Positions 1,054 to 44,469 of a stretch of DNA of 64,000 nucleotides are shown in pieces. Source of the stretch: a phage; sequence record PV467749.1. The stretch is one strand, 5' to 3'. The notes under the pieces were generated by a model. The model worked only from the letters and a program-made list of their open reading frames with translations. It was not told the origin of the DNA and did no database searches. The position numbers and the translations under genes are program-made. Numbering within the stretch: the stretch's first letter is position 1; every line of letters starts with the position of its first letter.

Positions 1054-6288
<5,235 letters not shown>

Positions 6289-6421
6289 TCACTTTCCCAG
6301 ATTTGATAAATAATATCATAGAGATCAGGGAATATTGCCTTAAATTTAAATGTGGTTTATATTTTTTGATAAATAATATTAAGCAGGGTGTTCCTGCACA
6401 AAATTTGACAAGGAGATTTTT

Positions 6422-7021
6422 ATGAGTCTTAATTCTTTTAACCGTAACTATGGTATGTCTGCTACTGCTCGTGAATACTGGGGTGGTAACAATGGTTTCG
6501 TAACCATCGTTGTTGATCTACCAGCAGATGTTGAAGTTGGTACTACCGCTGTTACTTCTGACGGTTCCGAAATTCAAGATGAAGCACTACAAACTGCAAT
6601 CAGCAATGCTCAATACAACCAATTCATGATTACCCAACTACTACAACAACGTGCAGTACTAGTTACTACTTCCGTACTAGCTCTAGACACCGCTGTTGTT
6701 ATCCCTGCTGACTTTAAAACCGTTGGTGGTAACGTAATCGCGTTTGGTACTAGTGGTGCTGATGTTACAGGTGGTGCTGGTTCTGTTGCTCTAACCTTCA
6801 TCTGTGAACGTCAAGACGTATTTGACAAACAAGAAGTTCGCCCAGGTGCTGCTTACTCTGTACCAGTTGATCCAACTGTTGAACTAGCTAAAGCTATTGC
6901 ACAAGCTAAATTCTTCCGTACCAAATCTTATGTTGCTCTAGGTACTGATGGTGTTGGTGATGCTGCTGCCGCTGACGCTGTTGCAATTAAAGTTCGTGCT
7001 GCTCTACCAGTACAACTATAA
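6422..7021 (+). CDS. hypothetical abundant protein, paralog A (199 aa)
   Basis: AGGAG RBS 8 nt upstream; Ala/Val/Thr/Gly-rich; shares motifs (QQRAVLV/IIATS, ER-DVFDK) with the next gene; codon usage like the capsid gene (cta Leu, cgt Arg, ggt Gly). Confidence 0.7.
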   Translation: MSLNSFNRNYGMSATAREYWGGNNGFVTIVVDLPADVEVGTTAVTSDGSEIQDEALQTAISNAQYNQFMITQLLQQRAVLVTTSVLALDTAVVIPADFKTVGGNVIAFGTSGADVTGGAGSVALTFICERQDVFDKQEVRPGAAYSVPVDPTVELAKAIAQAKFFRTKSYVALGTDGVGDAAAADAVAIKVRAALPVQL

Positions 7022-9057: not shown

Positions 9058-9065
9058 TATTTATA
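9058..9065 (-). promoter_or_regulatory. T4-type late promoter motif TATAAATA (minus strand)
   Basis: Exact TATAAATA about 60 nt upstream of the zinc-ribbon/GroES-like operon. Confidence 0.4.
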
Positions 9066-16322: not shown

Positions 16323-17420
16323 TTACTTAAAAGTATTTACAATTTCTAAAACACTTTCAAGATACTTAGCATCAAAAGTTTCAGTAAATCCTGATGGCAA
16401 CTCTTCAGTACTTACCACACCACTTTCAATGTATTTCTTTATGAACTTTTCCAACAGTAATGGTTGATTGCCATCTTCAAAGTAGCGTTCTATAAGTACT
16501 TCATGCTCGAACTCAGAATTGCGGCTTTGTTCGTTAACACGGCGTTTCATATCACCAGTGATCCCATATTTGTACACCGTCTTGTTATTGTTAGTTAGTT
16601 TTTGTACATAGAAATATCCAGGTTTTGATGGTTGATATCCATATTCACCACATGATGGACATCCTTTACCAGCCATATGTGCTTTTGGTTGTTGGGAGAA
16701 GACACCATGAGTCGGACATACAATATCAATATAATTCTCGCTTAAAGTATATTCAACCAAGCTATAATCATACTTATGGTTATGGATAGGCGACACAAGT
16801 TCAATGAAACGTTCAGTGCTTCTTCCACCTTTACCAGAACATGTACCGCAGCCAGTTTTACCCTTCAATAAAGTTTGGGCTGAAACAGTCCATTCGTGTT
16901 TACCGCGTGTGCAATATACGGTAACTTCCGTTTTATTGTTAACATATTTGGTATTTGGAAATTCAAACGCACCACCATAGTTTTCTTTTACTTTTGCGAT
17001 GAATGATTCAGTACTGTATGCTTCATTTTTATTACAGACAGGACATCCCCTACCAGAAAGAAATTTGTTTGGTGTAATTTCAAAGTAATCGTTATGGTCT
17101 TCATCAGTGCAAAATAGTGTTACTTTTGTTATAGCGTTAGTGTAATTTAGTTTATCAAATTTGAATTTATCTTTACCAAATTTAGTTTCTACAGTACTGA
17201 TGAATGTGTCGTTGTTTGAACGCTGTGACATGTTTGAATAACATGATGCACATGTACATGCAATGTGACGAAGTGCAGACTTGGTGTTTTCTTTCCCACA
17301 CTTGTTACATTTTACTGTTGTTTTACTTGCCTTGAATACTAAAGTACTGAAGTCAAATTCTCCATACTTAGCAGTCATTTGGTTAATAAACTCTTCTTTG
17401 TTGATACTTACGTTTGGCAT
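16323..17420 (-). CDS. homing-endonuclease-like protein: tandem Cys/His zinc-ribbon modules + C-terminal GIY-YIG/T5orf172-like nuclease domain
   Basis: About four repeats of the module (K)YDYSLVEY-x8-IxCPTHGxFxQxPxxHxxGKGCPxC, then GYFYVQKL...VYKYGITGDMKRR...TETF resembling a GIY-YIG/T5orf172 domain; own consensus promoter; sits between capsid gene and downstream genes. Confidence 0.6.
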   Translation of the reverse strand: MPNVSINKEEFINQMTAKYGEFDFSTLVFKASKTTVKCNKCGKENTKSALRHIACTCASCYSNMSQRSNNDTFISTVETKFGKDKFKFDKLNYTNAITKVTLFCTDEDHNDYFEITPNKFLSGRGCPVCNKNEAYSTESFIAKVKENYGGAFEFPNTKYVNNKTEVTVYCTRGKHEWTVSAQTLLKGKTGCGTCSGKGGRSTERFIELVSPIHNHKYDYSLVEYTLSENYIDIVCPTHGVFSQQPKAHMAGKGCPSCGEYGYQPSKPGYFYVQKLTNNNKTVYKYGITGDMKRRVNEQSRNSEFEHEVLIERYFEDGNQPLLLEKFIKKYIESGVVSTEELPSGFTETFDAKYLESVLEIVNTFK

Positions 17421-17452
17421 ATTTTTGTCTCTTTGATAGCGTGTATGTGCGT

Positions 17453-17481
17453 ATTATACATAACCAAAAACATCATGTCAA
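17453..17481 (-). promoter_or_regulatory. consensus sigma70-like promoter (TTGACA, 17-nt spacer, TATAAT) for HEG-like gene
   Basis: Minus-strand TTGACA (plus 17476-17481) and TATAAT (plus 17453-17458) with 17-nt spacer, about 35 nt upstream of ATG 17420. Confidence 0.6.
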
Positions 17482-17491
17482 TGTTTTTAAT

Positions 17492-17526
17492 AAAAAAAGG
17501 GACTCCGAAGAGTCCCTATTGTTTTT
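17492..17526. terminator. bidirectional rho-independent terminator (A-run, GGGACTC-CGAA-GAGTCCC, T-rich)
   Basis: Perfect 7-bp stem; A7 upstream, TATTGTTTTT downstream; immediately after the major capsid gene. Confidence 0.8.
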
Positions 17527-17560
17527 AATTTCTTGATTAAATCTTTTAAATCGATTATAA

Positions 17561-18736
17561 TTACATGAAAGTAACGTTTTTGATAGCGATTTTGCTGTAG
17601 TAGTCAGCAGCGTTACCTAGTGAACTGGTGCTATCGGTCAACTGTACATAGCCATATCTGGTTAGAAAAGTTGTAACGAGTTCCCCAGTGTTAGGGTCCA
17701 TTACAGTACCGGAAGCCATTAGTGGGATGTATGGGCAATAGAACACACCAGCATCAGTTTCAGCGTTACCTTTGTAACCAATTAGGATATCTTCAACATC
17801 ACTTGCATAGGTATCAACGAAGATACGCATGGTGCTGTTTAGAGTACCAACAAATTTAACGTTAGTTGGAGCTTCGAAAGTACCTTCAGTAGTACGTGCA
17901 AAACTAGAAGTAGTTGCAGACTGTAGAATGGTTAGAGCGGTTGGAGAAACAACAGCCCAGTTCGCAGCACCACGTTTGGTACGACGAGCAACTTCGTTCG
18001 CTTGACGGTTGATTAGGGTAGCTAGAGCAGCGTGCTCGTCACCAACGAAGGTCGCAACACCAGTAACTTTAGATTGGTCATAAGTTACAGCAGCAGCACC
18101 AGGTAGTGCACGTAGACGGCTTAGTAGCTCTTGGTCGATTTCAACGGTAACTTCTTGAGCGATTGCAGCCATTAGTTCAGCTTCAACGTCAATACCATGT
18201 TGGGATTGTGCATCTTGTGCAGATTCAACAGTCCAACGTGCAGATAGACGACGAGATTTCGCTTCAACAGTTTCACGTAGAATACGGATGTTAACGCGAC
18301 GACCCATAGTACCTTCTAGTTGGCTAGTAGGAGCAGCTTGTGGGTTGCTGTTGTCTGCGTTTAGGTCACCAGTATAAGACTTAGCGATTTTGTATGGAGA
18401 AAGCATTTCTTCACCAGCGATAACACCAGGAGCGTTGTCAGCATATTGAACACGTAGGGTGTGGATCTGACCAACTGGGCCAGTCATTGGCTGAACACCG
18501 ATGATTTCGTTAGCGATTACGGTTGGCATAACACGACGCATAATTGGTAGAATCACTTTGTTTAGAGTAGCGATGTTACCAGCGGTGGTTGCACCAGAAG
18601 TAGCAGATTCGTTTAGCATTAGTTTACGATGGTTATCAAGTACGGTTTCCATTACGGACTTACGAGTACCTTGTAGACCTTCAACTAGTTTCTCTTTAAC
18701 TGCTACCCATTTGGATTCATTTAGTAGTTGTGACAT
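17561..18736 (-). CDS. gp23: major capsid protein (T4 gp23-like)
   Basis: Blocks IGVQPMTGPVGQIHTLRVQY, EAKSRRLSARW, RGAANWAVVSP, GYKGNAETDAGVFYCPYIPL parallel T4 gp23; synteny portal-core-protease-scaffold-capsid; AAGGAG RBS; TATAAATA upstream; biased codon usage. Confidence 0.9.
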   Translation of the reverse strand: MSQLLNESKWVAVKEKLVEGLQGTRKSVMETVLDNHRKLMLNESATSGATTAGNIATLNKVILPIMRRVMPTVIANEIIGVQPMTGPVGQIHTLRVQYADNAPGVIAGEEMLSPYKIAKSYTGDLNADNSNPQAAPTSQLEGTMGRRVNIRILRETVEAKSRRLSARWTVESAQDAQSQHGIDVEAELMAAIAQEVTVEIDQELLSRLRALPGAAAVTYDQSKVTGVATFVGDEHAALATLINRQANEVARRTKRGAANWAVVSPTALTILQSATTSSFARTTEGTFEAPTNVKFVGTLNSTMRIFVDTYASDVEDILIGYKGNAETDAGVFYCPYIPLMASGTVMDPNTGELVTTFLTRYGYVQLTDSTSSLGNAADYYSKIAIKNVTFM

Positions 18737-18769
18737 TATTATCTCCTTAAAGATGTTATATTCGTTTTT

Positions 18770-18826
18770 CAGTATGATATTATTTATAGAACTGAAAAAT
18801 TTGATTATTAAAATGCTTTAAAATGT
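18770..18826 (-). repeat. conserved ~55-nt intergenic element, copy 1 (contains late promoter)
   Basis: Near-identical to 21510..21566: shared AGTATGATATTATTTA...ACTGAAAAATTT...TTAAAA(T/A)GCTTTAAAA. Confidence 0.6.
18781..18788 (-). promoter_or_regulatory. T4-type late promoter TATAAATA (minus strand) for major capsid gene
   Basis: Exact TATAAATA about 45 nt upstream of ATG 18736, embedded in the extended motif TTTCAGTTCTATAAATAATATCATACTGAAAAA. Confidence 0.65.
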
Positions 18827-19942
18827 TTATTTTTTATTGATACCAGAAAGAACATCGAGTTCTTTTAGGAATGCCATATCGTCAGCGGTCATTTCTTCGC
18901 TTTCAACAATAGCCTGACGGTTGCCAGTGATTACTTTACCTTCTGCAAGAGTTCTCTTAGCGGAAGACTGAACTGCTTGACGAGTGGTAGCAGATTCATT
19001 TACTTTAGTACCGTTAAGTACTGACTTATGGTACTTGCTGAAATCGTCTTTAAGCTTTTCTGTAGGAGAAGTAGCTAGAAGGGATTCCATAATTTGTTTC
19101 TGTTGTGTAGTTAGTGGCTTAACTAGTTCAGACATAATCGCATTACGAGCTTGTGAATCTTCCATAATACGTAGTTTGGTTTTAGCAGCTTTAACTTCAC
19201 TTACAGTTTCATTTAGTTCTTGTTTAACTTGTGCAATTTCGTCTTCTTTAGACTTAATTGATTCAGTTAGGGAACGTAGTAGTGAATTCTCATTAAATTG
19301 TTTGACATTAAACTCTTGAGCAAACGCTTCAAAGATTTTACGACCAAACATATTTTGTTTTGCTTCAACAAGATCTTCTTTCAAAGCGTATAGGTTTTTC
19401 TGAGTAGTTTCTGCAATATATTTAGCAGCACTTTCAGATGTACGTTTGATGAAGTTGTTACGTGCTTCAGCAATTTGACGGGAGCCTTCAGCTAGTAGTT
19501 TAACGCGAGTTTCAACTAGTTGACGTTTCTCGATGTGGAATTCTTTTAGCTCTTCTGCTAGGATACCGTTAGAGAAATTAACGAATTTACCCATGCATTC
19601 TTGAAGATGCTTACGTTCTTTACGCATTTGTTTAACTTCTTCAGCCAAAACAGAGTTAGAAAACGCAGAGAAATTACTTAGGGTTTTACGGAGAGTTACA
19701 CGATCTTCTACAAGACGTTTTTTCTCTTCATATACTGCACCCATTTCTTCAGCGATAACTTGAGTAACCATAGTATTTAGACCTTCGGTTAGCTCAGACA
19801 AATCTTGTTTGTAGCGGCCTTTCATTTCTTCACGCATTTCTGCGGCAAGTGTGTTTTTTTCTTCATTCCATGCTTCCTGAATTAGCTGTTTTGCCTCATC
19901 AGAAAGAGATGATTCTTTTAGAAGCTTTTCTAATTTAGACAT
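18827..19942 (-). CDS. prohead scaffold/core protein (gp22-like by position and composition)
   Basis: 371 aa, E/K/Q-rich, predicted coiled-coil; directly upstream of the capsid gene; AAAGGAGAG RBS. Confidence 0.6.
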   Translation of the reverse strand: MSKLEKLLKESSLSDEAKQLIQEAWNEEKNTLAAEMREEMKGRYKQDLSELTEGLNTMVTQVIAEEMGAVYEEKKRLVEDRVTLRKTLSNFSAFSNSVLAEEVKQMRKERKHLQECMGKFVNFSNGILAEELKEFHIEKRQLVETRVKLLAEGSRQIAEARNNFIKRTSESAAKYIAETTQKNLYALKEDLVEAKQNMFGRKIFEAFAQEFNVKQFNENSLLRSLTESIKSKEDEIAQVKQELNETVSEVKAAKTKLRIMEDSQARNAIMSELVKPLTTQQKQIMESLLATSPTEKLKDDFSKYHKSVLNGTKVNESATTRQAVQSSAKRTLAEGKVITGNRQAIVESEEMTADDMAFLKELDVLSGINKK

Positions 19943-19989
19943 TCGTTCTCTCCTTTAAGTACTGAAATATCTGTACTTCAACATACAAA

Positions 19990-19997
19990 TATTTATA
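19990..19997 (-). promoter_or_regulatory. T4-type late promoter TATAAATA (minus strand) for scaffold gene
   Basis: Exact TATAAATA about 50 nt upstream of ATG 19942; TTTCAGTACT motif lies between it and the RBS. Confidence 0.55.
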
Positions 19998-20008
19998 TTT
20001 TTAAAATG

Positions 20009-20629
20009 TTAACCTTTTAATTTCTTGAAAAAATCGTAAATTTCAGAATCTACATTATTTACTGTTTTAGATTCTGTGATTTTTTTAGGACTATTACAAG
20101 GTGATCCGTACTTACTCATCAGAGATTCAAAAACCGCAGTAGGGTATGCCTCTGGAGCACTAGGTTGAGCAACAATATCAATTGTGATAATTTCAAAATC
20201 AGAAACTATTCCATTGTAATCCACGTTACCGGAACCACGAGAACTTACACCAAGTTTCACACCAGCTTCTAGCATTTTACGAATATTAGTACCATGAGCA
20301 GTATCAAGTAGTTTGATTTCTGCCATGCCGTTAGCACCTTCCATCCAGACCTTAGTAATCATTGCTGCTACACGGTCAAGGTTAATTGTTAGTGTTTCAG
20401 GGTGGTCACATTCAACTAGAATACTTTCACCTTTAGCCAAACGTTGAGCCATATTATTAACAGCTTTAGTAATTTCGGCTAAAGGGTAAATTCTCTCATT
20501 TAAATTTCTTTGATCGGCTTGAATAGCAATACCACGAAGATAGCAATCACGCCCACCAAGTCCATTATCACGATGTTCCAAAACAACTTTAGAATCATTG
20601 AATGAAGACCATTCACGAATCATACTCAT
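20009..20629 (-). CDS. gp21: prohead core protease (T4 gp21-like)
   Basis: 206 aa with CDHPE and GVSSRGSG motifs as in the T4 gp21 family; positioned between core-protein and scaffold genes. Confidence 0.7.
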   Translation of the reverse strand: MSMIREWSSFNDSKVVLEHRDNGLGGRDCYLRGIAIQADQRNLNERIYPLAEITKAVNNMAQRLAKGESILVECDHPETLTINLDRVAAMITKVWMEGANGMAEIKLLDTAHGTNIRKMLEAGVKLGVSSRGSGNVDYNGIVSDFEIITIDIVAQPSAPEAYPTAVFESLMSKYGSPCNSPKKITESKTVNNVDSEIYDFFKKLKG

Positions 20630-20660
20630 AATGATCTCCTTTCCTTTTCTTTATTTAGTG

Positions 20661-21476
20661 TTAGATTTTTGGTTGTGATTTTGGTAGTGGAGAACGAGAT
20701 TTAGAAGCGGTATTTTTTGGCTTCGCAACATCTTTCATTTCGCCACGAGCATTTTTACCTAGGTCTTCATCAGTGTGGGACATAGCATCTTCGTTTTCAA
20801 AATCATAATCTACTTGTTTTTCGGAAGCTTTAGCGAATTTCACTGGAGCAACACCTTGAACTGGAGATTTAGCTTCTGGTGCAACTGGGGACTTGGTATT
20901 AACGCCAGCTTTTTCTTTCTTATCAACCGCAGCAACTTGCTTAAGTTTGAAAGACTCACCAACTTTCTCATCACCGAATTGTACATCAGCAAATTCGTCT
21001 TCAGATTCTTCACCATCAGCACCAACTTCAACTTCTTCGTCGTCAGAACCTAGGTCAACTTCATCACCACCGATTTCGTCAAACATTTGTTGTAGGCCAC
21101 GGAAAGCATCTTGAATAGATTCCCATTGGTCTTCGGAAGGAACTTCTGCACCAACTTCTGCTTCAGCGTCAACTTCTTCGCCATCAGCATCAGCAGAGAA
21201 TTCAACTTCTTCTTCTGCACTTTCATCTTCTTCACCTAGGGTGTATTCGATTTCAGCATTTAGACCAGCGTCTGGTTGAACATCAAAGTCTTCGTCAAGT
21301 TTTTCTTCGTCTTTGACTTCAACTTCACATTCTTCTTCGTCCATGCTTTCTTCTAGTTCTTTATTGATTTCTTGAGCTTGCTCAACAAAGTACTTACGCA
21401 TTTTTTTATCAGCAACATCTTGTTCGCCGTTTGCAAACGCTTCAATTGCTTCTTGTAGTAGTTTTAAATTCGCCAT
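20661..21476 (-). CDS. highly acidic prohead core/internal protein (gp68-like by position)
   Basis: About 271 aa, extremely Asp/Glu-rich; between portal and protease genes; ATG 21476 with GGAGGA RBS. Confidence 0.5.
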   Translation of the reverse strand: MANLKLLQEAIEAFANGEQDVADKKMRKYFVEQAQEINKELEESMDEEECEVEVKDEEKLDEDFDVQPDAGLNAEIEYTLGEEDESAEEEVEFSADADGEEVDAEAEVGAEVPSEDQWESIQDAFRGLQQMFDEIGGDEVDLGSDDEEVEVGADGEESEDEFADVQFGDEKVGESFKLKQVAAVDKKEKAGVNTKSPVAPEAKSPVQGVAPVKFAKASEKQVDYDFENEDAMSHTDEDLGKNARGEMKDVAKPKNTASKSRSPLPKSQPKI

Positions 21477-21509
21477 TATATCCTCCATAGATATATTACA
21501 TTCATATAA

Positions 21510-21566
21510 AGTATGATATTATTTAGTACTGAAAAATTTCGCCATTTTTAAAAGCTTTAAAAAGTG
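21510..21566 (-). repeat. conserved ~55-nt intergenic element, copy 2 (late-promoter-like, TAAATA variant)
   Basis: Matches 18770..18826; promoter core reads CAGTACTAAATAAT (lacks the TA of TATAAATA). Confidence 0.55.
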
Positions 21567-21576
21567 CGATTTTTGT

Positions 21577-21804
21577 TTACATTAATCCTGAACCATCACC
21601 GGATGGTGCTGCTGCATAAACAACAGCGACAACATTTTTGCGTCGTTGTTCTTCATTAGCTTTAAATTCACGGTACTTTCTTAAATTATTAAGTACTTGT
21701 AATGTTAGTTTTGGTTTTCTGGAATCAGTAATTTTATATACGTTCTGATCATCTTCAGGGTCGTATAAAGAATCACTGCTAGATTCAAAGATGTCCTTTA
21801 ACAT
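21577..21804 (-). CDS. small prohead core protein (gp67-like by position)
   Basis: 75-aa ORF between portal and acidic core-protein genes. Confidence 0.4.
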   Translation of the reverse strand: MLKDIFESSSDSLYDPEDDQNVYKITDSRKPKLTLQVLNNLRKYREFKANEEQRRKNVVAVVYAAAPSGDGSGLM

Positions 21805-21877
21805 TTCATCTCCTTTGAATATGCATTATAATGAGGGCAACTAATGTACCCTCATTCTTATACATTGTTATTTATGA

Positions 21878-23614
21878 TTAAAAAGAATCGCCTAAATTAT
21901 TCGGGTTAAAACCTGCACTTCCTTGTTGTTCTTGGTATTCAGCATCGGCACTTTCTAAGTTACCGTCATCATCAATACCCAAATCCATACCAGGATCGTT
22001 AGGAGCATCTATACCAACAGATTGCAACCCAGCAGCATCTTCTTCACCACTTGACGGAGCGGAACCATCTTGTGGATTTTCTTGGAGCCACATTTGCTCA
22101 TTCTTAACAATATCAGCTTTAGAGAAGCCCATTTTTTCAAGAATAGTTTGTTTTGCCATATATGGCAGATCGTTAAGTGGGAGATAGGTGTTAATTAGTT
22201 TAGCATCTAGTTCCGCTTTACGATAAGAAGCCAAGTTAATAGGTGGATTCATAATTACTTCAAAAGATGAAGTACTAATGTTATATCCATTTTTAACCAT
22301 AAAACGTTTAAATTCTGCATCAAATAGTTTTGCAACTAAACGTTGATAACGCATACATTGGTTATTAAAACGTAATTCACTTGCCATTGCTTGTGTTGCA
22401 CCATCACCAAATAGTGATACACCACCATCATCTGGACCTTGCGGTAGATATGAAGCTGGGATTTGCAAACCACGAATCAATTTATTGTTGAAGTAACGCA
22501 AGTCATCAATCTGACCTAAGTTATCACCACCAGGAAGTGTTTGTACATCTGAACCACGACCTTCAGAAGTTTGTGGGAAGAAGTAATCTTCTAGAATACT
22601 TAATGGATTATATGCTGCATCCATTAGTGAAGTACTGCCACCTTTATTTGAAGGAATACGTCTTTGGTGAATTTCATTTTTGAATCGTTCTACGTATGCC
22701 ATTGCTTGGTGAGTTTGCATATCACCAACGTCGATTTTAAATACACGACGCTCTGGAGCACGTTGAACACGATAGATAATAATACTATCTTCAAGTAATT
22801 CTTTTTGTTTATAGACTTTGAAAACATCTTCAAGTATACTAGTACCAAAAGGCCAAACTCCATCTTGTCCTGTATTTAGGGTTAGATGAATTACATGTTC
22901 TGCACCAACTGGAATAACATCAAGACGACCGTTAGTACTGAATGGGTCAGCAGAGTTTCCTTGGTTAGTAAAGCCAGATGCACCACCTGCTGCTACTGAA
23001 CCACCGCCACCTAATGTGGTAGGGATTGCACCAGGATATGCAGTTTTGTCAAAACCAACTTGCAAGTTACTAAACACTTTATCTTTAAGATTCAAAGATA
23101 CGTCACGGATATAATAAATTACAGGGGTTTTTCCGGTTGCTTCGTTAACGAATACTTGTTCAACGTTTTTTGGGCTTACCCAGTACCAGTCAAATGTTTC
23201 TGGGTCACGAATGAAGAATTGGTCACCGTATTTTAATAGGCCACGTACAATTTCATACATTCTGGTTTTAAAATCATTTTGTTCTGTCCATGCATCCAAA
23301 CGGTCTTCAATAGTAGTTACTTCTGTATCACCAATATCATCTTTATATTTGATTTTATATGGAAGACCAAAATCTTCAGTACTTTGTGTACAGAAGTCAG
23401 CAATGATATTAAGTGCTGTTCTAATTTCAGGATCTTGGTCCATCTGTTCATACTGACTATAACGTTCAGTACGGTTAGCTAAACCATTGTATACTACTGG
23501 AAGATAGGAAGCGAAATTGGTTTTCGTTCCTGTTGATTTGTTGCTATTACTGGACTGATTAGGGACGACCGATAACTTCGATCTCCCCATTGTCATATGT
23601 CGTTTCCAACTCAT
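21878..23614 (-). CDS. gp20: portal protein (T4 gp20-like)
   Basis: Blocks SIIIYRVQRAPERRVFKIDVGDM and TLPGGDNLGQIDDLRYFNNKL parallel the T4 gp20 conserved core; 578 aa. Confidence 0.9.
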   Translation of the reverse strand: MSWKRHMTMGRSKLSVVPNQSSNSNKSTGTKTNFASYLPVVYNGLANRTERYSQYEQMDQDPEIRTALNIIADFCTQSTEDFGLPYKIKYKDDIGDTEVTTIEDRLDAWTEQNDFKTRMYEIVRGLLKYGDQFFIRDPETFDWYWVSPKNVEQVFVNEATGKTPVIYYIRDVSLNLKDKVFSNLQVGFDKTAYPGAIPTTLGGGGSVAAGGASGFTNQGNSADPFSTNGRLDVIPVGAEHVIHLTLNTGQDGVWPFGTSILEDVFKVYKQKELLEDSIIIYRVQRAPERRVFKIDVGDMQTHQAMAYVERFKNEIHQRRIPSNKGGSTSLMDAAYNPLSILEDYFFPQTSEGRGSDVQTLPGGDNLGQIDDLRYFNNKLIRGLQIPASYLPQGPDDGGVSLFGDGATQAMASELRFNNQCMRYQRLVAKLFDAEFKRFMVKNGYNISTSSFEVIMNPPINLASYRKAELDAKLINTYLPLNDLPYMAKQTILEKMGFSKADIVKNEQMWLQENPQDGSAPSSGEEDAAGLQSVGIDAPNDPGMDLGIDDDGNLESADAEYQEQQGSAGFNPNNLGDSF

Positions 23615-25825: not shown

Positions 25826-25970
25826 AACATTCCCTTTTAATAGATGTATTATAGAAATATTTATGAATCTATAACGAATAAAAAAGACCCATCTATAACA
25901 TTTGTCCAATTTGTCCCATTTTTTGGTAATAAATACTACAGAGACATTTATTACATGGAGATTTAATAAA

Positions 25971-31206: not shown

Positions 31207-32238
31207 TTATAGTGATCTGTAAATTTGGATTAGAAGATTTTTATCGAACATAGGTGAATCAATTTCCATGATTTGTTGTAACACAATCTCATCAACTGAC
31301 TCAGTACTTTCAAAGCTTTCACCATCTTCAATAAGTTCTTTGATACTTTGCTTGCTAGTAACAACGTTAAACTCACGAATGTTATAAAGTTTAGTAAAAG
31401 TATCACGAATAAAACTAATCTCATCAGTAGTGATAGCAATATCAACTTGAACCTTTGAAATAGTATTGTCTTGAAGATAATAACTTGGATCTGTTAATAG
31501 TTCTGAAAGTGTAAATGTTCTATATTTTGGTGCTTCTGACCAAGAATGGAAAGTTGGTTCTTTACCATGTTCTAAAATCATCACACCTCTTGCATCATCC
31601 CATGTATCAGAAAAGTTATGTGGGAAACAGTTACCTGTGTAAATTACACGAGTTCCTTTGGATGTTGTTTTTGCTTGTCTCTTGTGGAAATGCCCACTAA
31701 AAACATACTCACAACCACCAAAAGAACCTTCAGTCTCTTTACCATGATCTGGCATCTCAACCATTTTATTGAGCAAGTAGCCAGGTAACTCTAAGTGACC
31801 AAAAACATACTTACTTTTAAGTTGAGGTAGAACTTTGTATTCATCTTCAATCATAAATGGAATGAAAGTACAATCATCAAATGTTGTGATTTCATTAATG
31901 AACTCGATGTTCTCATAAACTTGTGCCATATTAATACTAGTAATGTCACGTTTATTTTTATGATACATGTCATGGTTCCCAACTAAGAAGTAAACCTTAT
32001 CAAAGTTGTCATTTAGTAATTGTAGAATTTGTAAACCATAGTTTAATGTTTGAATGTTAATATTACTGCGGTTATGGAAGTAATCTCCCATAAACACGCA
32101 TACAGTAATACCATTTTTCTTAGCAAGTTCAATCATAAACTTGATGAAGTTCAAACAATCTTCGTTGTGCTGCTTGCTGTTATTCTTTAATCCTAAATGA
32201 ATATCAGTAAATGTAATTGCTTTATCAAATAGAGCCAT
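31207..32238 (-). CDS. gp47: recombination nuclease, SbcD/Mre11-like (T4 gp47-like)
   Basis: Metallophosphatase motifs DIHLG, GDYFH, GNHD; ATG 32238 with AAAGGAAAAA RBS; overlaps stop of gp55-like gene; track ORF uses an upstream TTG. Confidence 0.85.
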   Translation of the reverse strand: MALFDKAITFTDIHLGLKNNSKQHNEDCLNFIKFMIELAKKNGITVCVFMGDYFHNRSNINIQTLNYGLQILQLLNDNFDKVYFLVGNHDMYHKNKRDITSINMAQVYENIEFINEITTFDDCTFIPFMIEDEYKVLPQLKSKYVFGHLELPGYLLNKMVEMPDHGKETEGSFGGCEYVFSGHFHKRQAKTTSKGTRVIYTGNCFPHNFSDTWDDARGVMILEHGKEPTFHSWSEAPKYRTFTLSELLTDPSYYLQDNTISKVQVDIAITTDEISFIRDTFTKLYNIREFNVVTSKQSIKELIEDGESFESTESVDEIVLQQIMEIDSPMFDKNLLIQIYRSL

Positions 32239-33064
32239 CTTCGTTTTTCCTTTCAATCATGTTCATTTCAATTTCGATTTGACGAGTGTGTGATGGTGTA
32301 AAACCATGCATCTCAAGTAAATCGTCTCGGATGTTACGAACATTTTTCTCACTATTAAGAATCGAACGGAAACTATTGTTAACGAACGAAGTATAGTAAG
32401 AGAAAGGATTCAACTGTACTGCTGGTTTATCTTTTTTGTAAAGAATACTCTCTTTAAAGAGAAGTGCGTTTTTAACTAATTGTATTCTGGCATCACCCAT
32501 CATTTCATCCAAATATGTATAGTTTCTATAGTTGGATTTGTGTGAGATTTCCTCTGCCAGTTTAATGAACATTTTACCTAGTTCATTAGTGATTTTACCA
32601 TGAACAGTGCTGAATTCTCCGTCTTCAAGATCACCTTTCCAGTGAGAACGAACGACTTCGTACAGAATACCTTCTTCATCTACAATGTAATGTTTGAATG
32701 GTTCAAAATTAACTCTTGTATCTGCTGGGATATGTTCATCGGTAATTACACGAATAACCACCTCATCGATAGGTACATCAGTCAGTACTAAATTGTGCTC
32801 ATCTGCGTATTCCTTCGCTTTCTTCGCACTCATACCTTCTTTTTCACGAATTGCATCAAGCATTTCATTGTTGAGACGTTTAATACGTGCTGCTTTAGCT
32901 TTATCTAAAAGTTCTGCTGTGATTTCGGATTCATCAAAAACGATATAATCGTACATACTGTAGCACTTATCAAGTAACCAGCAATATGAGATTTTACTTT
33001 TTTGTATCTCACGAAGTAAATCAGCATTGTTAAGATACTTTTTACGCTTCGGCCTATTTGTCAT
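32225..33064 (-). CDS. gp55: late-transcription sigma factor, gp55-like, with large internal insertion
   Basis: N-terminus MTNRPKRKKYLNNADLLREI and C-terminal NPFSYYTSFVNNSFRSILNSEKNVRN parallel T4 gp55 ([38 protein letters not shown]); about 110 extra residues between; ATG at 33064. Confidence 0.6.
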   Translation of the reverse strand: MTNRPKRKKYLNNADLLREIQKSKISYCWLLDKCYSMYDYIVFDESEITAELLDKAKAARIKRLNNEMLDAIREKEGMSAKKAKEYADEHNLVLTDVPIDEVVIRVITDEHIPADTRVNFEPFKHYIVDEEGILYEVVRSHWKGDLEDGEFSTVHGKITNELGKMFIKLAEEISHKSNYRNYTYLDEMMGDARIQLVKNALLFKESILYKKDKPAVQLNPFSYYTSFVNNSFRSILNSEKNVRNIRDDLLEMHGFTPSHTRQIEIEMNMIERKNEDGSI

Positions 33065-33152: not shown

Positions 33153-33160
33153 TATAAATA
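33153..33160 (+). promoter_or_regulatory. T4-type late promoter TATAAATA for baseplate gene cluster
   Basis: Exact TATAAATA 36 nt upstream of ATG 33196 in the divergent region between gp55-like and baseplate genes. Confidence 0.55.
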
Positions 33161-36521: not shown

Positions 36522-39185
36522 ATGGCAGATACAAGTAAGAAATATGCCCAACAACAGTTGGGTCGTTTTGACCCTTCGTATCCACAACTAGCAACCGTGA
36601 TGGATAACCGTGACCCAACTAAATCCGGTAAGCTAAAAGTGTGGATTCAAGGTTCACAAAGTGATAAAAATTCAAAAGAGTCATGGATTGAAGCATCATA
36701 CATGTCTCCATTCGCTGGTAAAACTCCAGGGATACCAAGTGCTGATGCTTATGGTCAATATCCAAAGGGATATGGTTTTTGGGCGGTTCCACCTGATGTC
36801 GGATGTACTGTTGTTGTTATATTTGCACAAGCAAGAACATTCCAAGCGTATTGGATTGGTTGTGTTTATGACCAACGTATGAATACGATGGTTCCTGGGA
36901 TGGCTACTGAAATAAGCAATTATGCAGGTACTGATATGCCATTACCCGTAACTGATTATGACCGTAATACAATTTCTACCAGTACTCAAGACAAATATGC
37001 AAACGTTCCAATTATTGCAGGTCTGAAAAAACAAAACTTACTTTATGATGAGGAAGCGGGTGTTGCTAACCGTAGTAGTACTCGCCAGACCACCAGTACT
37101 GTTTATGGTCTTTCCTCACCTCGTGGTAACAGTTTTATTATTGATGATGGTTACACAGAAGAAGAATTAACAGCACCTACATGGGATCAAGATCCAGATG
37201 GTTATCAGGATACCCAATTCAATAACCCAGTGAACGATACTCGTGTTGGTTCTCGTAAAAATGAAGGCGTTGTAATTAAAACACGTAGTGGTGCACAGTT
37301 GTTGTTATCTGAAGCCTCTGGTGATGTTCTTTTAATTAACCGTGATGGTACTGCACGTATTAAATTCACTGGTGAAGGTGATATTGAAATGCACTGTGAT
37401 AAGAATATTAACATTCGTGCAGGTCAAGATATTAACATGGTTGCTGGACGCTCATATAATATTGAAAGTGGAGCAGACTTCAATGCTCGTGTTGGTGCAA
37501 ACACTAAACTAGATTTGGTTGGTGCATTGGATGCTAAAGTTGGTGGTCAGGTTGTTATTAACGCTGGAGCAGATTTACGTTTAGTAACAGCAGCTTCATT
37601 ACGTATGCAAAGTGGTAGCAGTACTGATATAACTGCTGGTTCTAATGCGTCAATCTCTGCTGCTACCAGTGCTAATCTTATTGGTTCTTCATCAGCTATT
37701 ATTAGTGGTGGTGGTCAAACCCTTACTGTTAACAGTGGTGGTAATAGTGGTACTGCTGAATTTAATGCACCAAACTTCCGCACCCCATCTGCTGGCTTGA
37801 ATGATCATATACATGATATATCGGCTTGGGTTGATGCAGAGAATCACGGCAGTACTGTTGAACCTCCACGTCAAGGTGGTGGTAGTGGGAATAGTGAATC
37901 CCCAGTTCAACCTGAACCTGCTAATGATGTAGCTCCAACTTTAGCTCCAGTACAGGACACTGAAGCAATTCAATATGTAAATTATACAACAGAAACAGAA
38001 CAAGTTCAAACACAAGATTTAATGACTTCTGATCCTAGTATGACTGGTTATAGCATTACTTATGAAGGTCTTCATATGTTCATGCCGTGTAGTGGAACCA
38101 TTCGCCAATACGGTTATTGGGGGAAAGGTGTCCCGACTAGTGGTGGTGGTAAAGCTGATAGAAGTGGCTGGGAAATACAGTGCAAGGGTGATGTTGTAGC
38201 TCCAGATGGCGGTGTAGTTGTTATCACTAATGGTGCTTTATTGGTTCAACATAAGTCTGGATATAAATCTGTATTTTATAATATTCAATCAGATTTGCTC
38301 AATAAAGACGTTGTTCAAAAAGGTCAAGTTATCGGTAAAGCTAATGGTGTTATTCAATTTGAAATAAGAGTCACCTCTGCCAACGTACTAGGATTTAGTG
38401 GTTCTGTTGACCCTGGATTATTCTATGCATCCCAGACTGGTACAGGTTCTGAAGCGGGAAATAAAACATTAATTGCAGGACAAGCAACGAACCAAGCAGC
38501 ACCGAAAGCTGTTGTTCAACCTTCTGTTGATAGTGATGAATTAGTTGTAACAACTAAAATTAAAACTATCGGTACTGGGTATTCTCAACGTGGTTCTCGT
38601 CATGTCCCTCGTCGTAGAAGAACACAACGTTCAGGTGGTACTCCAGCACCTACTGCACAAGAATCATACAATGTGGGTAATGTTGATAAGACTGCAATTG
38701 ATTGGAAAGTTGTTCCGGGTGATTCACAATTTATTTCTGAATTGAAAGAATATGAAGGAACAATGGCGTATCAACAAGCTAAAGGATATTACCGCAATGG
38801 TAAATTTTGGAGATATTTGGATAGTCGTGGATTCCCAACTATTGGTTACGGTCACTTGATTGTTGGTGGTGAAAACTTCTCTGGTGGGATTACCGAACAG
38901 GAAGCCAATGATATGTTGGTGCGTGATAGTAGTAAGGCTATATATGACGCAAAATCCATTTACGCTTCTTATAAGATGAAAACACCTTACATGGCACAAC
39001 AAGTTCTATGTCAAATGGTATTCCAGATGGGTAAAGGTGGTGTAATGAAATTTAAGTCAATGCTATCTGAAATGGCTAAAGGTAACTACAAGCAAGCTGC
39101 TGCTCAAATTCGAAATTCAGCTTGGTATCGTCAAACTACACGCCGTGCTGAATTAATGGCACGTAGATTAGAGGCATGTCAATAA
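36522..39185 (+). CDS. gp5: baseplate central spike, gp5-like, with C-terminal T4-lysozyme (GH24) domain
   Basis: N-terminal gp5/VgrG OB-fold pattern (GKLKVWIQG...GYGFWAVPPDVGCTVVVIF...YWIG); central Gly/Ser/Ala-rich repeats; block GQVIGKANGVIQFEIRV resembling a LytM/M23 fold without His ligands; C-terminal EYEGTMAYQ...PTIGYGH...VFQMGKGG...SAWYRQTTRRAE matching T4 lysozyme. Confidence 0.75.
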   Translation: MADTSKKYAQQQLGRFDPSYPQLATVMDNRDPTKSGKLKVWIQGSQSDKNSKESWIEASYMSPFAGKTPGIPSADAYGQYPKGYGFWAVPPDVGCTVVVIFAQARTFQAYWIGCVYDQRMNTMVPGMATEISNYAGTDMPLPVTDYDRNTISTSTQDKYANVPIIAGLKKQNLLYDEEAGVANRSSTRQTTSTVYGLSSPRGNSFIIDDGYTEEELTAPTWDQDPDGYQDTQFNNPVNDTRVGSRKNEGVVIKTRSGAQLLLSEASGDVLLINRDGTARIKFTGEGDIEMHCDKNINIRAGQDINMVAGRSYNIESGADFNARVGANTKLDLVGALDAKVGGQVVINAGADLRLVTAASLRMQSGSSTDITAGSNASISAATSANLIGSSSAIISGGGQTLTVNSGGNSGTAEFNAPNFRTPSAGLNDHIHDISAWVDAENHGSTVEPPRQGGGSGNSESPVQPEPANDVAPTLAPVQDTEAIQYVNYTTETEQVQTQDLMTSDPSMTGYSITYEGLHMFMPCSGTIRQYGYWGKGVPTSGGGKADRSGWEIQCKGDVVAPDGGVVVITNGALLVQHKSGYKSVFYNIQSDLLNKDVVQKGQVIGKANGVIQFEIRVTSANVLGFSGSVDPGLFYASQTGTGSEAGNKTLIAGQATNQAAPKAVVQPSVDSDELVVTTKIKTIGTGYSQRGSRHVPRRRRTQRSGGTPAPTAQESYNVGNVDKTAIDWKVVPGDSQFISELKEYEGTMAYQQAKGYYRNGKFWRYLDSRGFPTIGYGHLIVGGENFSGGITEQEANDMLVRDSSKAIYDAKSIYASYKMKTPYMAQQVLCQMVFQMGKGGVMKFKSMLSEMAKGNYKQAAAQIRNSAWYRQTTRRAELMARRLEACQ

Positions 39186-39197
39186 ATATTTCAGTAC

Positions 39198-39205
39198 TAT
39201 AAATA
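39198..39205 (+). promoter_or_regulatory. T4-type late promoter TATAAATA for endolysin gene
   Basis: TTTCAGTACTATAAATAATAAT about 18 nt upstream of ATG 39223; same extended motif as upstream of the capsid gene. Confidence 0.6.
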
Positions 39206-39222
39206 ATAATGAGGAAATCTTT

Positions 39223-39711
39223 ATGAGTAAATGGGAAATCAAAAATACCGACGAACAATTTTTTAAAGAAATTAAAGAATTTGAAGGTACTATTGCGTAT
39301 CAGAAAAAACTTGGTTATTTTAAAAATGATAAGTTTTGGGTATATAAAGACAGTCTAGGTCTTGATACCATTGGTTACGGTCACCTTGTACTTAAGGGTG
39401 AAAGTTTCAAAAATGGACTCACTGAAGCAGAAGCTGATGCTCTCCTTATAAAAGATGCTCAGACCGCTTACAATGACGCAAAATCAATCTATGATCAATT
39501 TGGAATGACTGCTCCAGTACAGGTTCAGCGTGTATTGTGGTTTATGGTGTTCCAAATGGGTAAATCAAAAGTTTTAAATTTCAAAAAAGCGATGGCTGCT
39601 CTCGGTCGTGGTGATTATAAAACTGCTGGTAAAGAAATGCGTGATAGTTCGTGGTACAAACAAACCACATCCAGAGCGGAGAAGATGGCTCGCATCGTCG
39701 AATCCGTATAA
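39223..39711 (+). CDS. e: endolysin, T4 lysozyme-like (GH24)
   Basis: EFEGTIAYQ...YKDSLGLDTIGYGH (catalytic Glu/Asp/Thr equivalents), FMVFQMGKS, SSWYKQTTSRAEK; GAGGAAA RBS; close paralog of the C-terminal domain of the adjacent spike protein. Confidence 0.9.
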   Translation: MSKWEIKNTDEQFFKEIKEFEGTIAYQKKLGYFKNDKFWVYKDSLGLDTIGYGHLVLKGESFKNGLTEAEADALLIKDAQTAYNDAKSIYDQFGMTAPVQVQRVLWFMVFQMGKSKVLNFKKAMAALGRGDYKTAGKEMRDSSWYKQTTSRAEKMARIVESV

Positions 39712-44461: not shown

Positions 44462-44469
44462 CATAAATA
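44462..44469 (+). promoter_or_regulatory. late-promoter-like motif CATAAATA upstream of the giant ORF
   Basis: One mismatch to TATAAATA, about 35 nt upstream of ATG 44506. Confidence 0.35.

Follow-up and report, generated by a model that had tools for sequence, protein, structure and literature searches.

Predicted T4-type late promoters and paralogous promoter-leader cassettes in the head gene cluster of an Asteriusvirus phage

Head gene cluster and late sigma factor

We analysed 64,000 nucleotides (nt) of phage DNA (sequence record PV467749.1), referred to below as the window, with respect to the late promoters of its head genes, in particular those upstream of the capsid protein (MCP) gene and of the gene for an acidic core/virion protein. 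Comparison of region 17000-22000 revealed 98.9% identity to Escherichia phage vB_Ec-M-J and about 90% to 121Q, phAPEC6 and PBECO4. Judged by its sequence, the window is that of an Asteriusvirus (121Q/Rak2-like) jumbo coliphage, a genus of 'Rak2-like' myoviruses of about 350-380 kb. According to the vB_Ec-M-J annotation, the head cluster on the minus strand is arranged in the order portal, p75 (75 amino acids (aa)), a 271-aa virion/core protein, head protease, a 371-aa scaffold-like protein and MCP. The product of the core gene matches phrog_15696, a virion structural protein (PHROGs). The start codon of this gene is the ATG at 21476, not that at 21488, and its ribosome-binding site (RBS), GGAGGA-N5-ATG, is kept in relatives.

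A gene for a gp55-family late sigma factor is located at 32225-33064 on the minus strand and encodes 279 aa; it is annotated as late sigma in vB_Ec-M-J. PHROGs searches with the protein detected phrog_12791 (E = 9e-153) and phrog_234, 'late sigma transcription factor' (E = 1e-16). The gp55-like part comprises residues 128-262, and the N-terminal ~125 aa showed no match to any family. Pfam gave no match for the sigma, core, scaffold or p75 proteins; PHROGs was informative. A clamp loader is present in the phage; none of six scanned neighbouring proteins matches a clamp. For CBB, a gp55-like sigma but no homologue of gp33 or gp45 is reported (PMC5259590).

Late promoter box

An exact search revealed five copies of the box TATAAATA in the window, at 9058-9065, 18781-18788 and 19990-19997 on the minus strand and at 33153-33160 and 39198-39205 on the plus strand; 7.8 copies are expected, so the number alone is not above chance. 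All five are non-coding (8.1% of the window), point in sense orientation and lie 17-58 nt upstream of late genes (P = 3e-6). Their targets are the FmdB-like/GroES operon, the capsid gene, the scaffold gene, a virion/baseplate operon and the lysozyme-domain hub gene (39223-39711; Pfam Phage_lysozyme). This result, together with the gp55-family sigma gene, bears out a preliminary description of the window, which had placed T4 late promoters upstream of capsid, scaffold, endolysin, baseplate and GroES genes.

The form NATAAATA occurs 20 times in the window; 17 copies are wholly non-coding and two more lie at the end of the upstream gene. All but one of the 20 point at a gene start 6-109 nt away, mostly of virion genes (P = 2e-16). 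Inside genes, ATAAATA is rare on both strands (1 vs 7.1 and 0 vs 9.3 occurrences in 300 synonymous-codon shuffles). A genome-wide scan comprised 274 of the 379 kb of vB_Ec-M-J, with record positions 50-100 kb and 324-379 kb left out. It detected 48 ATAAATA heptamers, 28 of them non-coding; comparable AT-rich heptamers are 2-3 times more frequent overall.

A late promoter matrix built from 31 candidate sites of vB_Ec-M-J showed that the information is confined to ATAAATA, with nothing upstream and no -35 element. The first position of the box is degenerate (A11 C3 G10 T7 of 31); the consensus is thus NATAAATA, within which TATAAATA is not privileged. An A is weakly preferred 6 nt past the heptamer (21 of the 31 promoters), where a T4-like start would fall. 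From this we place the probable start of transcription ~6 nt past the box, which in the capsid and core promoters would be at the A of CATAC. The MCP box TATAAATA (18781-18788, minus strand) would accordingly be followed by a start at about 18775, and the core box, the variant ACTAAATA (21520-21527, minus), by one at about 21514. The scaffold box at 19990-19997 is again TATAAATA, and the head protease box (20652-20659, minus) is the same variant ACTAAATA as that of the core promoter. A simple scan found no relevant sigma-70 promoter and no canonical terminator at the capsid and core blocks; its only perfect sigma-70 promoter and GC-rich terminator are those beside the endonuclease gene described below.

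An ATAAATA late promoter has already been predicted for this clade: the CBB publication gives ATAAATA upstream of structural genes at 35 places in CBB (MEME), also finds it in GAP32 and compares it with the T4 late promoter (PMC5259590). In T4, late promoters consist of an 8-bp box that precedes the start by about one helical turn; they are AT-rich downstream of it and lack a -35 element; 32 of 50 late sites are perfect and 9 of 50 have A at -13, and the late-promoter consensus of phage Aeh1 has (a/g)C at -13/-12 (PMC2988020). Taken together, the elements described here are, as predicted from sequence, T4-type late promoters, and ACTAAATA matches the Aeh1-type (a/g)C variant (PMC2988020). The core-promoter position holds ACTAAATA in Asteriusvirus and RaK2, and TATAAATA or AATAAATA in fENko, Hallingskeid, CBB, GAP32 and Yen9-04; the position orthologous to the protease promoter holds AATAAATA or CATAAATA in A4, fENko and Hallingskeid.

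Paralogous promoter-leader cassettes

The whole scaffold-MCP intergenic region (18737-18826, minus strand), with the capsid promoter and leader, is paralogous to the p75-core intergenic region (21477-21576, minus strand), with those of the core/virion-protein gene. Positions 18771-18786 match 21510-21525 in 16 of 16 nt and 18787-18802 match 21524-21539 in 15 of 16 with a 2-nt offset, and 18808-18838 and 21547-21577 share just 74% identity. The similarity runs on downstream through the 5' untranslated region (5'UTR) and the RBS. The duplicated block described earlier is therefore real and longer than was noticed on its downstream side, but to call it nearly identical over about 55 nt somewhat overstates the part with 74%. 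The missing TA of the core copy was read correctly: this copy lacks 2 nt, which leaves the box ACTAAATA.

Among 1029 intergenic pairs of the closest relative, the capsid/core pair ranks first with a local score of 67 (next-best 43, median 16); the window's own pair reaches 72, compared with 18.8 +/- 3.1 in shuffles. Alignment with 121Q showed that the scaffold-MCP spacer is identical in 90 of 90 nt, whereas the third codon positions of the flanking genes are 83-85% identical (P = 8e-8). The p75-core spacer shows 95% identity against 70-78% at third codon positions, and the protease-scaffold spacer 98.5%. Third codon positions of the genes beside these spacers range over 70-85%, and two other spacers have 74-80% identity. 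The MCP spacer is identical, over 97-100 nt, in about 30 genomes of Asteriusvirus, each of which has two matches. The sequence ATAAATAAnnnCATAC is common to the MCP and core promoters in most genera, from which RaK2 departs. The 55-nt block is thus best described, on this evidence, as the most similar part of two paralogous cassettes of promoter, 5'UTR and RBS of ~90-100 nt. The cassettes are present in every Rak2-like genus sampled and, as their sequences indicate, are old and under strong purifying selection.

Recombination or gene conversion between mobile regulatory cassettes might also have made the two blocks alike, with the sequence beyond the -10 box lacking any function. The outstanding similarity of the capsid/core pair would agree with this, as would the extra upstream similarity, TTTTTCAGTAC, which at the core site is specific to Asteriusvirus, as homogenisation would give. 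However, across the genus both regions change less than synonymous sites do, and ATAAATAAnnnCATAC, an upstream hairpin or T-run and the RBS context are common to most sampled genera. Since conservation of the cassettes and features shared across genera indicate selection and not just recent copying, we regard conversion as a very improbable explanation.

The core/virion gene itself is the least conserved of the head cluster, with 81% identity to 121Q. In this acidic core/virion gene, an imperfect repeat family (20984-21343) with a 36-nt reference unit has successive copies 12-102 nt apart, and the length of the gene varies among close relatives (+39 nt in 121Q, +30 in A4).

Composition of the apparent promoter extension

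The preliminary description had further proposed that the box occurs several times inside a longer motif. The 19-mer TTTCAGTWCTATAAATAAT is present in two exact copies, at 18779-18797 (minus strand; capsid) and 39189-39207 (plus strand; lysozyme-domain hub gene), with 0.17 matches expected at up to three mismatches, and in one variant at the core gene (21516-21534, minus strand), which is the same sequence minus 2 nt. The motif thus recurs, but no more often than this: a search for TTTCAGTWC(TA)TAAATA in the 274 kb of vB_Ec-M-J detected only the three sites seen in the window, and the promoters of the tail sheath and tube genes do not have the TTTCAGTWC extension. At the lysozyme site the boxes AATAAATA and TATAAATA stand in tandem (39181-39205, plus strand) with TTTCAGTAC between them; in 121Q the spacer is TTTTAGCAC, with two changes, and both boxes are kept. 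The TTTCAGTWC of the core promoter is not kept outside Asteriusvirus, as other genera are quite different after the T-run. For a general extended element, TTTCAGTWC plus TATAAATAAT, we found neither recurrence at many late promoters nor conservation among orthologues. With three sites in 274 kb and no matrix information upstream of the box, TTTCAGTWC as a recurrent promoter extension is not upheld. Its sequence is better read as a composite: TTTTTCAGTWC would consist of a U-tract, a hairpin arm and an AGTACT-type palindrome, and not of a promoter extension.

TTTCAGTWC, or an AGTACT-like core at about -19 to -14, could nevertheless be an upstream element for a subclass of late promoters, read by the N-terminus of the sigma factor or by a co-activator. 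The capsid cassette is 100% conserved within the genus, and AGTACT, AGTACC or AGTTCT stands at -19 to -14 in the capsid promoters of RaK2, A4 and the window. In early promoters of the terminal repeat (outside the window), AGTACT occupies this position too: in 14 of 74 cases it precedes TATAAT by exactly 7 nt, and in 21 of 74 another copy does so by exactly 27 nt. The N-terminal extension of the sigma is unexplained, and the lack of a recognised gp33 or clamp (PMC5259590) makes another activator plausible. Against this stand the absence of the element from 28 of the 31 candidate late promoters, including tail sheath and tube, the two changes at the lysozyme site of 121Q, the loss of the core copy outside Asteriusvirus, and CTGTGA or CTGTAA at the same place in the capsid promoters of Mimasvirus. 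Outside the terminal repeat, moreover, non-coding DNA has no higher density of AGTACT than coding DNA. Such an upstream element is unlikely in our judgement.

Two further readings of the motif were rejected. A subclass of strong promoters marked by the extension does not fit the tail sheath and tube promoters, which do not have it. The reverse complement of TAAAGCATTT resembles the MotA box of T4; here the orientation is wrong, no properly spaced -10 is present and the core copy has a mismatch.

A fourth copy of TTTCAGTACT is located at 19958-19967 (minus strand), downstream of the scaffold promoter and directly 5' of the scaffold RBS. Eight of nine genera retain CAGTACTT(T)AAAGGAG at this RBS, with AAGTACTTTACAGGAG in the case of fENko.

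Predicted hairpins at the capsid, scaffold and core promoters

The capsid box is flanked by an inverted repeat on the minus strand. Its left arm TTTTTCAGT (18791-18799, about -23 to -15) is the TTTCAGT noticed earlier, and its right arm ACTGAAAAA (18765-18773) would occupy about +3 to +11 of the predicted late mRNA. The arms can form 9 bp around a 17-nt loop which holds the box and the predicted start. This hairpin is the minimum-energy fold of a 45-nt segment (-6.7 kcal/mol, z = -3.2). Among 30 candidate late promoters the 9-bp repeat is the second-longest flanking repeat, and shuffles reach 9 bp in about 0.2%; the longest has 16 bp and is terminator-like. A general rule of inverted repeats around late promoters was discarded, as only the capsid repeat and this terminator-like case were found among the 30. 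In OQ718158.1 (~253,319-253,385, outside the window) a GATAAATA box, 29 nt upstream of a gene start, lies within a perfect inverted repeat of 16 bp, AAAAAACTCCAAGATT ... AATCTTGGAGTTTTTT. A T-run comes after the repeat, in the manner of a terminator with a late-promoter box in its loop.

The MCP arms of relatives were assessed by stem searches in each sequence in place of consensus folding. The arm pairs found were TTTTTCAG/CTGAAAAA, TTTTCTGT/ACAGAAAA, TTTTGT/ACAAAA and CTTTTTCA/TGAAAAAG; five variants keep 5-10 bp, with two apparent double changes. These apparently compensatory changes turn CAGT/ACTG into CTGT/ACAG in Mimasvirus and a C:G into a T:A pair in another relative, and in Hallingskeid and Mimasvirus a U.G pair lengthens the stem. 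The loop between full arms measures 15-22 nt and the spacing from CAG to CTG 17-19 nt. The MCP promoter is confined to the Rak2-like clade; phages less closely related have the scaffold gene directly next to the capsid gene. The idea that the arm change of Mimasvirus tracks a shift of the palindrome to CTGTACAG was abandoned, as CBB, GAP32 and Yen9-04 have AGTACT and zero CTGTACAG.

A hairpin at the scaffold promoter (19965-19994, minus strand) overlaps the 3' end of the box and the predicted start. Eight of nine genera have it, and the changes that preserve it are mostly swaps among U-A, U.G and C-G on the sense strand. In the alignment 94.7% of cells are paired, compared with 26-60% when the partners are slid, and five pairs vary through G.U. 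Rfam searches of 17400-22000 gave nothing above noise.

Since the predicted start of the capsid promoter lies between the arms, the hairpin could form only in RNA that reads through from upstream; the primary transcript would have only the right arm ACTGAAAAA and thus could not form it. We infer an action in RNA from the pairing potential and its conservation. At the boundary between cistrons, the hairpins would probably serve to mark read-through RNA or to process, stabilise or attenuate it. Sequestration of the RBS was rejected: a fold of the window pairs the upstream TTTTAAAGC with the capsid RBS, but 11 relatives give no support. In these relatives, read-through RNA and promoter-initiated RNA are only 0.00-0.16 apart in the probability of an unpaired RBS.

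It is possible that the MCP and scaffold hairpins have a role in DNA, as an operator or melting aid. The capsid inverted repeat would then be the operator of a dimeric regulator that covers the -10 box and the start, or it would help to expose the box to a weak minimal sigma, as a cruciform or by easing melting. Its arms (about -23 to -15 and +3 to +11) flank exactly the region to be melted, and concerted changes of the arms are also expected of a co-evolving dimeric site. Basal transcription by gp55 of T4, with weak binding and slow opening, works better on supercoiled DNA (PMC2988020). The variable spacing of the arms would be awkward for a rigid dimer, however, and the U.G pairs of Hallingskeid and Mimasvirus, like the sense-strand G.U pairs of the scaffold hairpin, point to RNA. 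A 9-bp AT stem with a 17-nt loop would also make a poor cruciform, and just one other late promoter, the terminator-like one, has a clearly long flanking repeat. An action of the capsid repeat in DNA therefore seems distinctly less probable than the proposed action in RNA, and we rate it as quite improbable.

At the core gene, the 43 nt before CAGTAC (21532-21574, minus strand) fold into a terminator-like hairpin of A-tract, stem, apical TTTTTAAAGCTTTTAAAAA, stem and U-tract; the U-tract is the TTTTT of 'TTTTTCAGTAC'. A hairpin followed by 5-6 U is found at the core site in every genus (-7 to -27 kcal/mol), with stems that differ by genus: TCGC/GCGA, TCCG/CGGA, GCCA/TGGT (with G.U) and GGCAT/ATGCC. 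Other late genes, too, commonly have a hairpin and T-run immediately ahead of NATAAATA. The core hairpin may thus end the upstream transcript just before the core promoter, in a layout of terminator then promoter.

Upstream of p75 (21805-21877), a GC hairpin, ATGAGGG...CCCTCAT, lies 14 nt past CATAAATA (21869-21876). This hairpin is retained among genera although the stem sequence differs entirely; the late promoter would here be followed by a 5' stem-loop or attenuator.

AGTACT palindrome

The CAGTAC(T) next to the capsid box is one copy of a genome-wide palindrome, (C)AGTACT(G). The window contains 132 AGTACT, compared with about 22 expected by base composition, and 31 CAGTACTG, compared with 0.7 (for example at 1398, 5787, 10169, 12837, 16036, 17009, 17192, 24127 ... 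57764). Coding DNA accounts for 122 AGTACT vs 31.7 +/- 4.7 in synonymous shuffles and for 31 CAGTACTG vs 2.6, with copies in each of the three frames. Along the genome the palindrome has a density of about 2 per kb, and every Rak2-like genus shows a similar value, while its sites change from genus to genus. In the terminal repeat of vB_Ec-M-J (1-21525) the density reaches 4.8 per kb in coding and 11.4 per kb in non-coding DNA; outside this repeat AGTACT is not enriched in non-coding DNA. The 7.5-kb PA5oct locus has zero copies, and 50 kb of E. coli K-12 have 0.22 per kb (~10 times less dense). Of 714 sites in vB_Ec-M-J, just 4 have the G-flanked form GAGTACTC. Literature searches on over-representation of AGTACT or CAGTACTG in phages gave nothing relevant.

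The arrangement at early promoters is AGTAC-TTGCAA ... AGTACTG-TATAAT, so that AGTACT takes two slots, one immediately 5' of the -35 hexamer and one at -19 to -14. In the window, six AGTACT are non-coding, three of them next to late promoters. An AGTACT-like hexamer abuts a few late boxes, including that of the capsid gene, whose hairpin arms are the halves of TTCAGT|ACTGAA. (C)AGTACT(G) might be a selected signal in phage DNA, with an AGTACT-binding factor that marks the DNA and joins early and late promoter function, perhaps replacing gp33 and clamp; we consider this proposal doubtful.

The early sigma-70-like promoters of the terminal repeat are themselves repeated cassettes, AAAAAGTAC-TTGCAA/TTGACA ... 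tAGTACTG-TATAAT. An intergenic hairpin in the window, GGGAAGTACTCGTTAAAGTACTCCCC (4700-4730), contains two AGTACT copies.

Further late promoter boxes and neighbouring genes

The variant motifs of the preliminary description were found where it had placed them: GATAAATAATAT at 6305-6316 and 6368-6379 on the plus strand, and CATAAATA at 44462-44469 (plus) and 25858-25865 (minus). To regard them as weaker promoters is without basis, given the degenerate first position. The former pair contains two GATAAATA boxes (6305-6312 and 6368-6375, plus strand) upstream of a virion gene (6422-7021). Of the CATAAATA boxes, that at 44462-44469 lies upstream of the gene for a 3333-aa virion protein, after a GC hairpin and T-run, and that at 25858-25865 upstream of the tape-measure gene.

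Next to the capsid gene on its downstream side, the region 16323-17517 holds a gene for a 365-aa 'endonuclease'. The gene's own promoter is a perfect sigma-70 sequence, TTGACA-17-TATAAT (17453-17481, minus strand), and a GC-rich bidirectional terminator lies upstream (17498-17517). As several close relatives have no match to 17000-17490, the gene looks like a mobile insertion. The terminase large subunit (2391-4035) is represented in the closest relative by two overlapping open reading frames, A (3691-4035) and B (2391-3728); a split gene, a frameshift or the remnant of an intron could account for this layout.

Discussion

The data presented here are best explained, in our view, by a combination of T4-type late promoters, paralogous capsid and core cassettes and an 'extension' of composite origin, and we consider this combination likely to be correct as a whole. 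The gp55-family sigma would direct host RNA polymerase to the 8-bp -10-like box NATAAATA, without a -35 element. In RNA reading through from the scaffold gene, the TTTTTCAGT/ACTGAAAAA hairpin would enclose the capsid box and start, and an analogous hairpin would form at the scaffold promoter.

Several observations weigh against this interpretation. A literature search found no mapped transcript 5' ends for any Asteriusvirus. A homologue of gp33 or of the sliding clamp was unrecognised (six neighbours scanned; PMC5259590), so that activation may differ from that of T4. The capsid and scaffold hairpins are short, rich in AU and of low stability (-6 to -9 kcal/mol). For the capsid region, RNAalifold derived no consensus structure from a MAFFT alignment, owing to out-of-register arms and AU-rich stems. 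The shuffle control of the scaffold hairpin was not significant, with 164 of 500 shuffles reaching the observed value, and compensatory changes in a symmetric site could equally fit a dimeric DNA-binding protein. The core hairpin of Asteriusvirus is weak (-10 kcal/mol, 4 G-C pairs) and was not called by the simple terminator scan. Finally, AGTACT abuts the box at 2 of about 22 late promoters of the window, compared with about 0.08 by our own post hoc estimate, which makes a promoter-linked role of this piece possible.

For annotation, the results suggest that late promoters of Asteriusvirus and Rak2-like phages can be recognised as intergenic NATAAATA or ACTAAATA, often just after a terminator; TATAAATA should not be taken as the sole 'canonical' form, nor TTTCAGTWC as part of the promoter. 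Overall, these are ordinary late promoters with some well-conserved, unexplained detail. New here are the promoter-enclosing hairpins and the AGTACT excess, which are solid as observations and unexplained in function. The hairpins enclosing the capsid and scaffold promoters represent a compact, previously undescribed design. If they indeed form only in read-through RNA, they would offer a phage with very long late operons a way to keep nested transcripts distinct. The AGTACT excess is a separate lead that could bear on the marking and organisation of DNA and on promoters without a recognisable gp33 or clamp.

In comparison with T4, the phage shares a TATAAATA-type 8-bp box without a -35 element, which precedes virion genes on either strand, a gp55-family sigma and the A(-13) variants. 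The gp55 of T4 has about 185 aa, in contrast to the 279 aa with an extra N-terminal region found here. Further differences are the fully degenerate first position, as opposed to 32 of 50 perfect sites in T4 (PMC2988020), the unrecognised gp33 and clamp (PMC5259590) and the start sites, which are predicted here. With CBB and GAP32 the window has in common the clade, the heptamer and its place before structural genes, the AT-rich downstream sequence and the gp55-like sigma; paralogous cassettes, the capsid inverted repeat, the scaffold hairpin and the AGTACT excess are not mentioned in the part of that publication consulted (PMC5259590). The core and protease boxes ACTAAATA show the same two-position departure as Aeh1 (PMC2988020), but here as a minority variant alongside NATAAATA and not as the phage consensus.

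Two types of intergenic module can also be compared with the cassettes. The early region is rich in repeats of the kind known as PeSL, and the capsid/core pair would be their late-promoter analogue. PeSL, reportedly described by Arbiol et al. in 2010, are said to be repeated intergenic modules of T4-type phages that combine a stem-loop or terminator with an early promoter and are associated with mobile accessory open reading frames. Unlike these, the cassettes exist in two copies only, serve essential head genes and carry a late promoter, and we found no evidence of shuffling. The hairpin and U-tract immediately 5' of NATAAATA at the core gene and several late genes resemble an insulating terminator-promoter junction, from which the Asteriusvirus core hairpin differs in being AU-rich and weak. 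The capsid and scaffold hairpins depart further from such a junction in that they have no U-tail and enclose or overlap the promoter itself.

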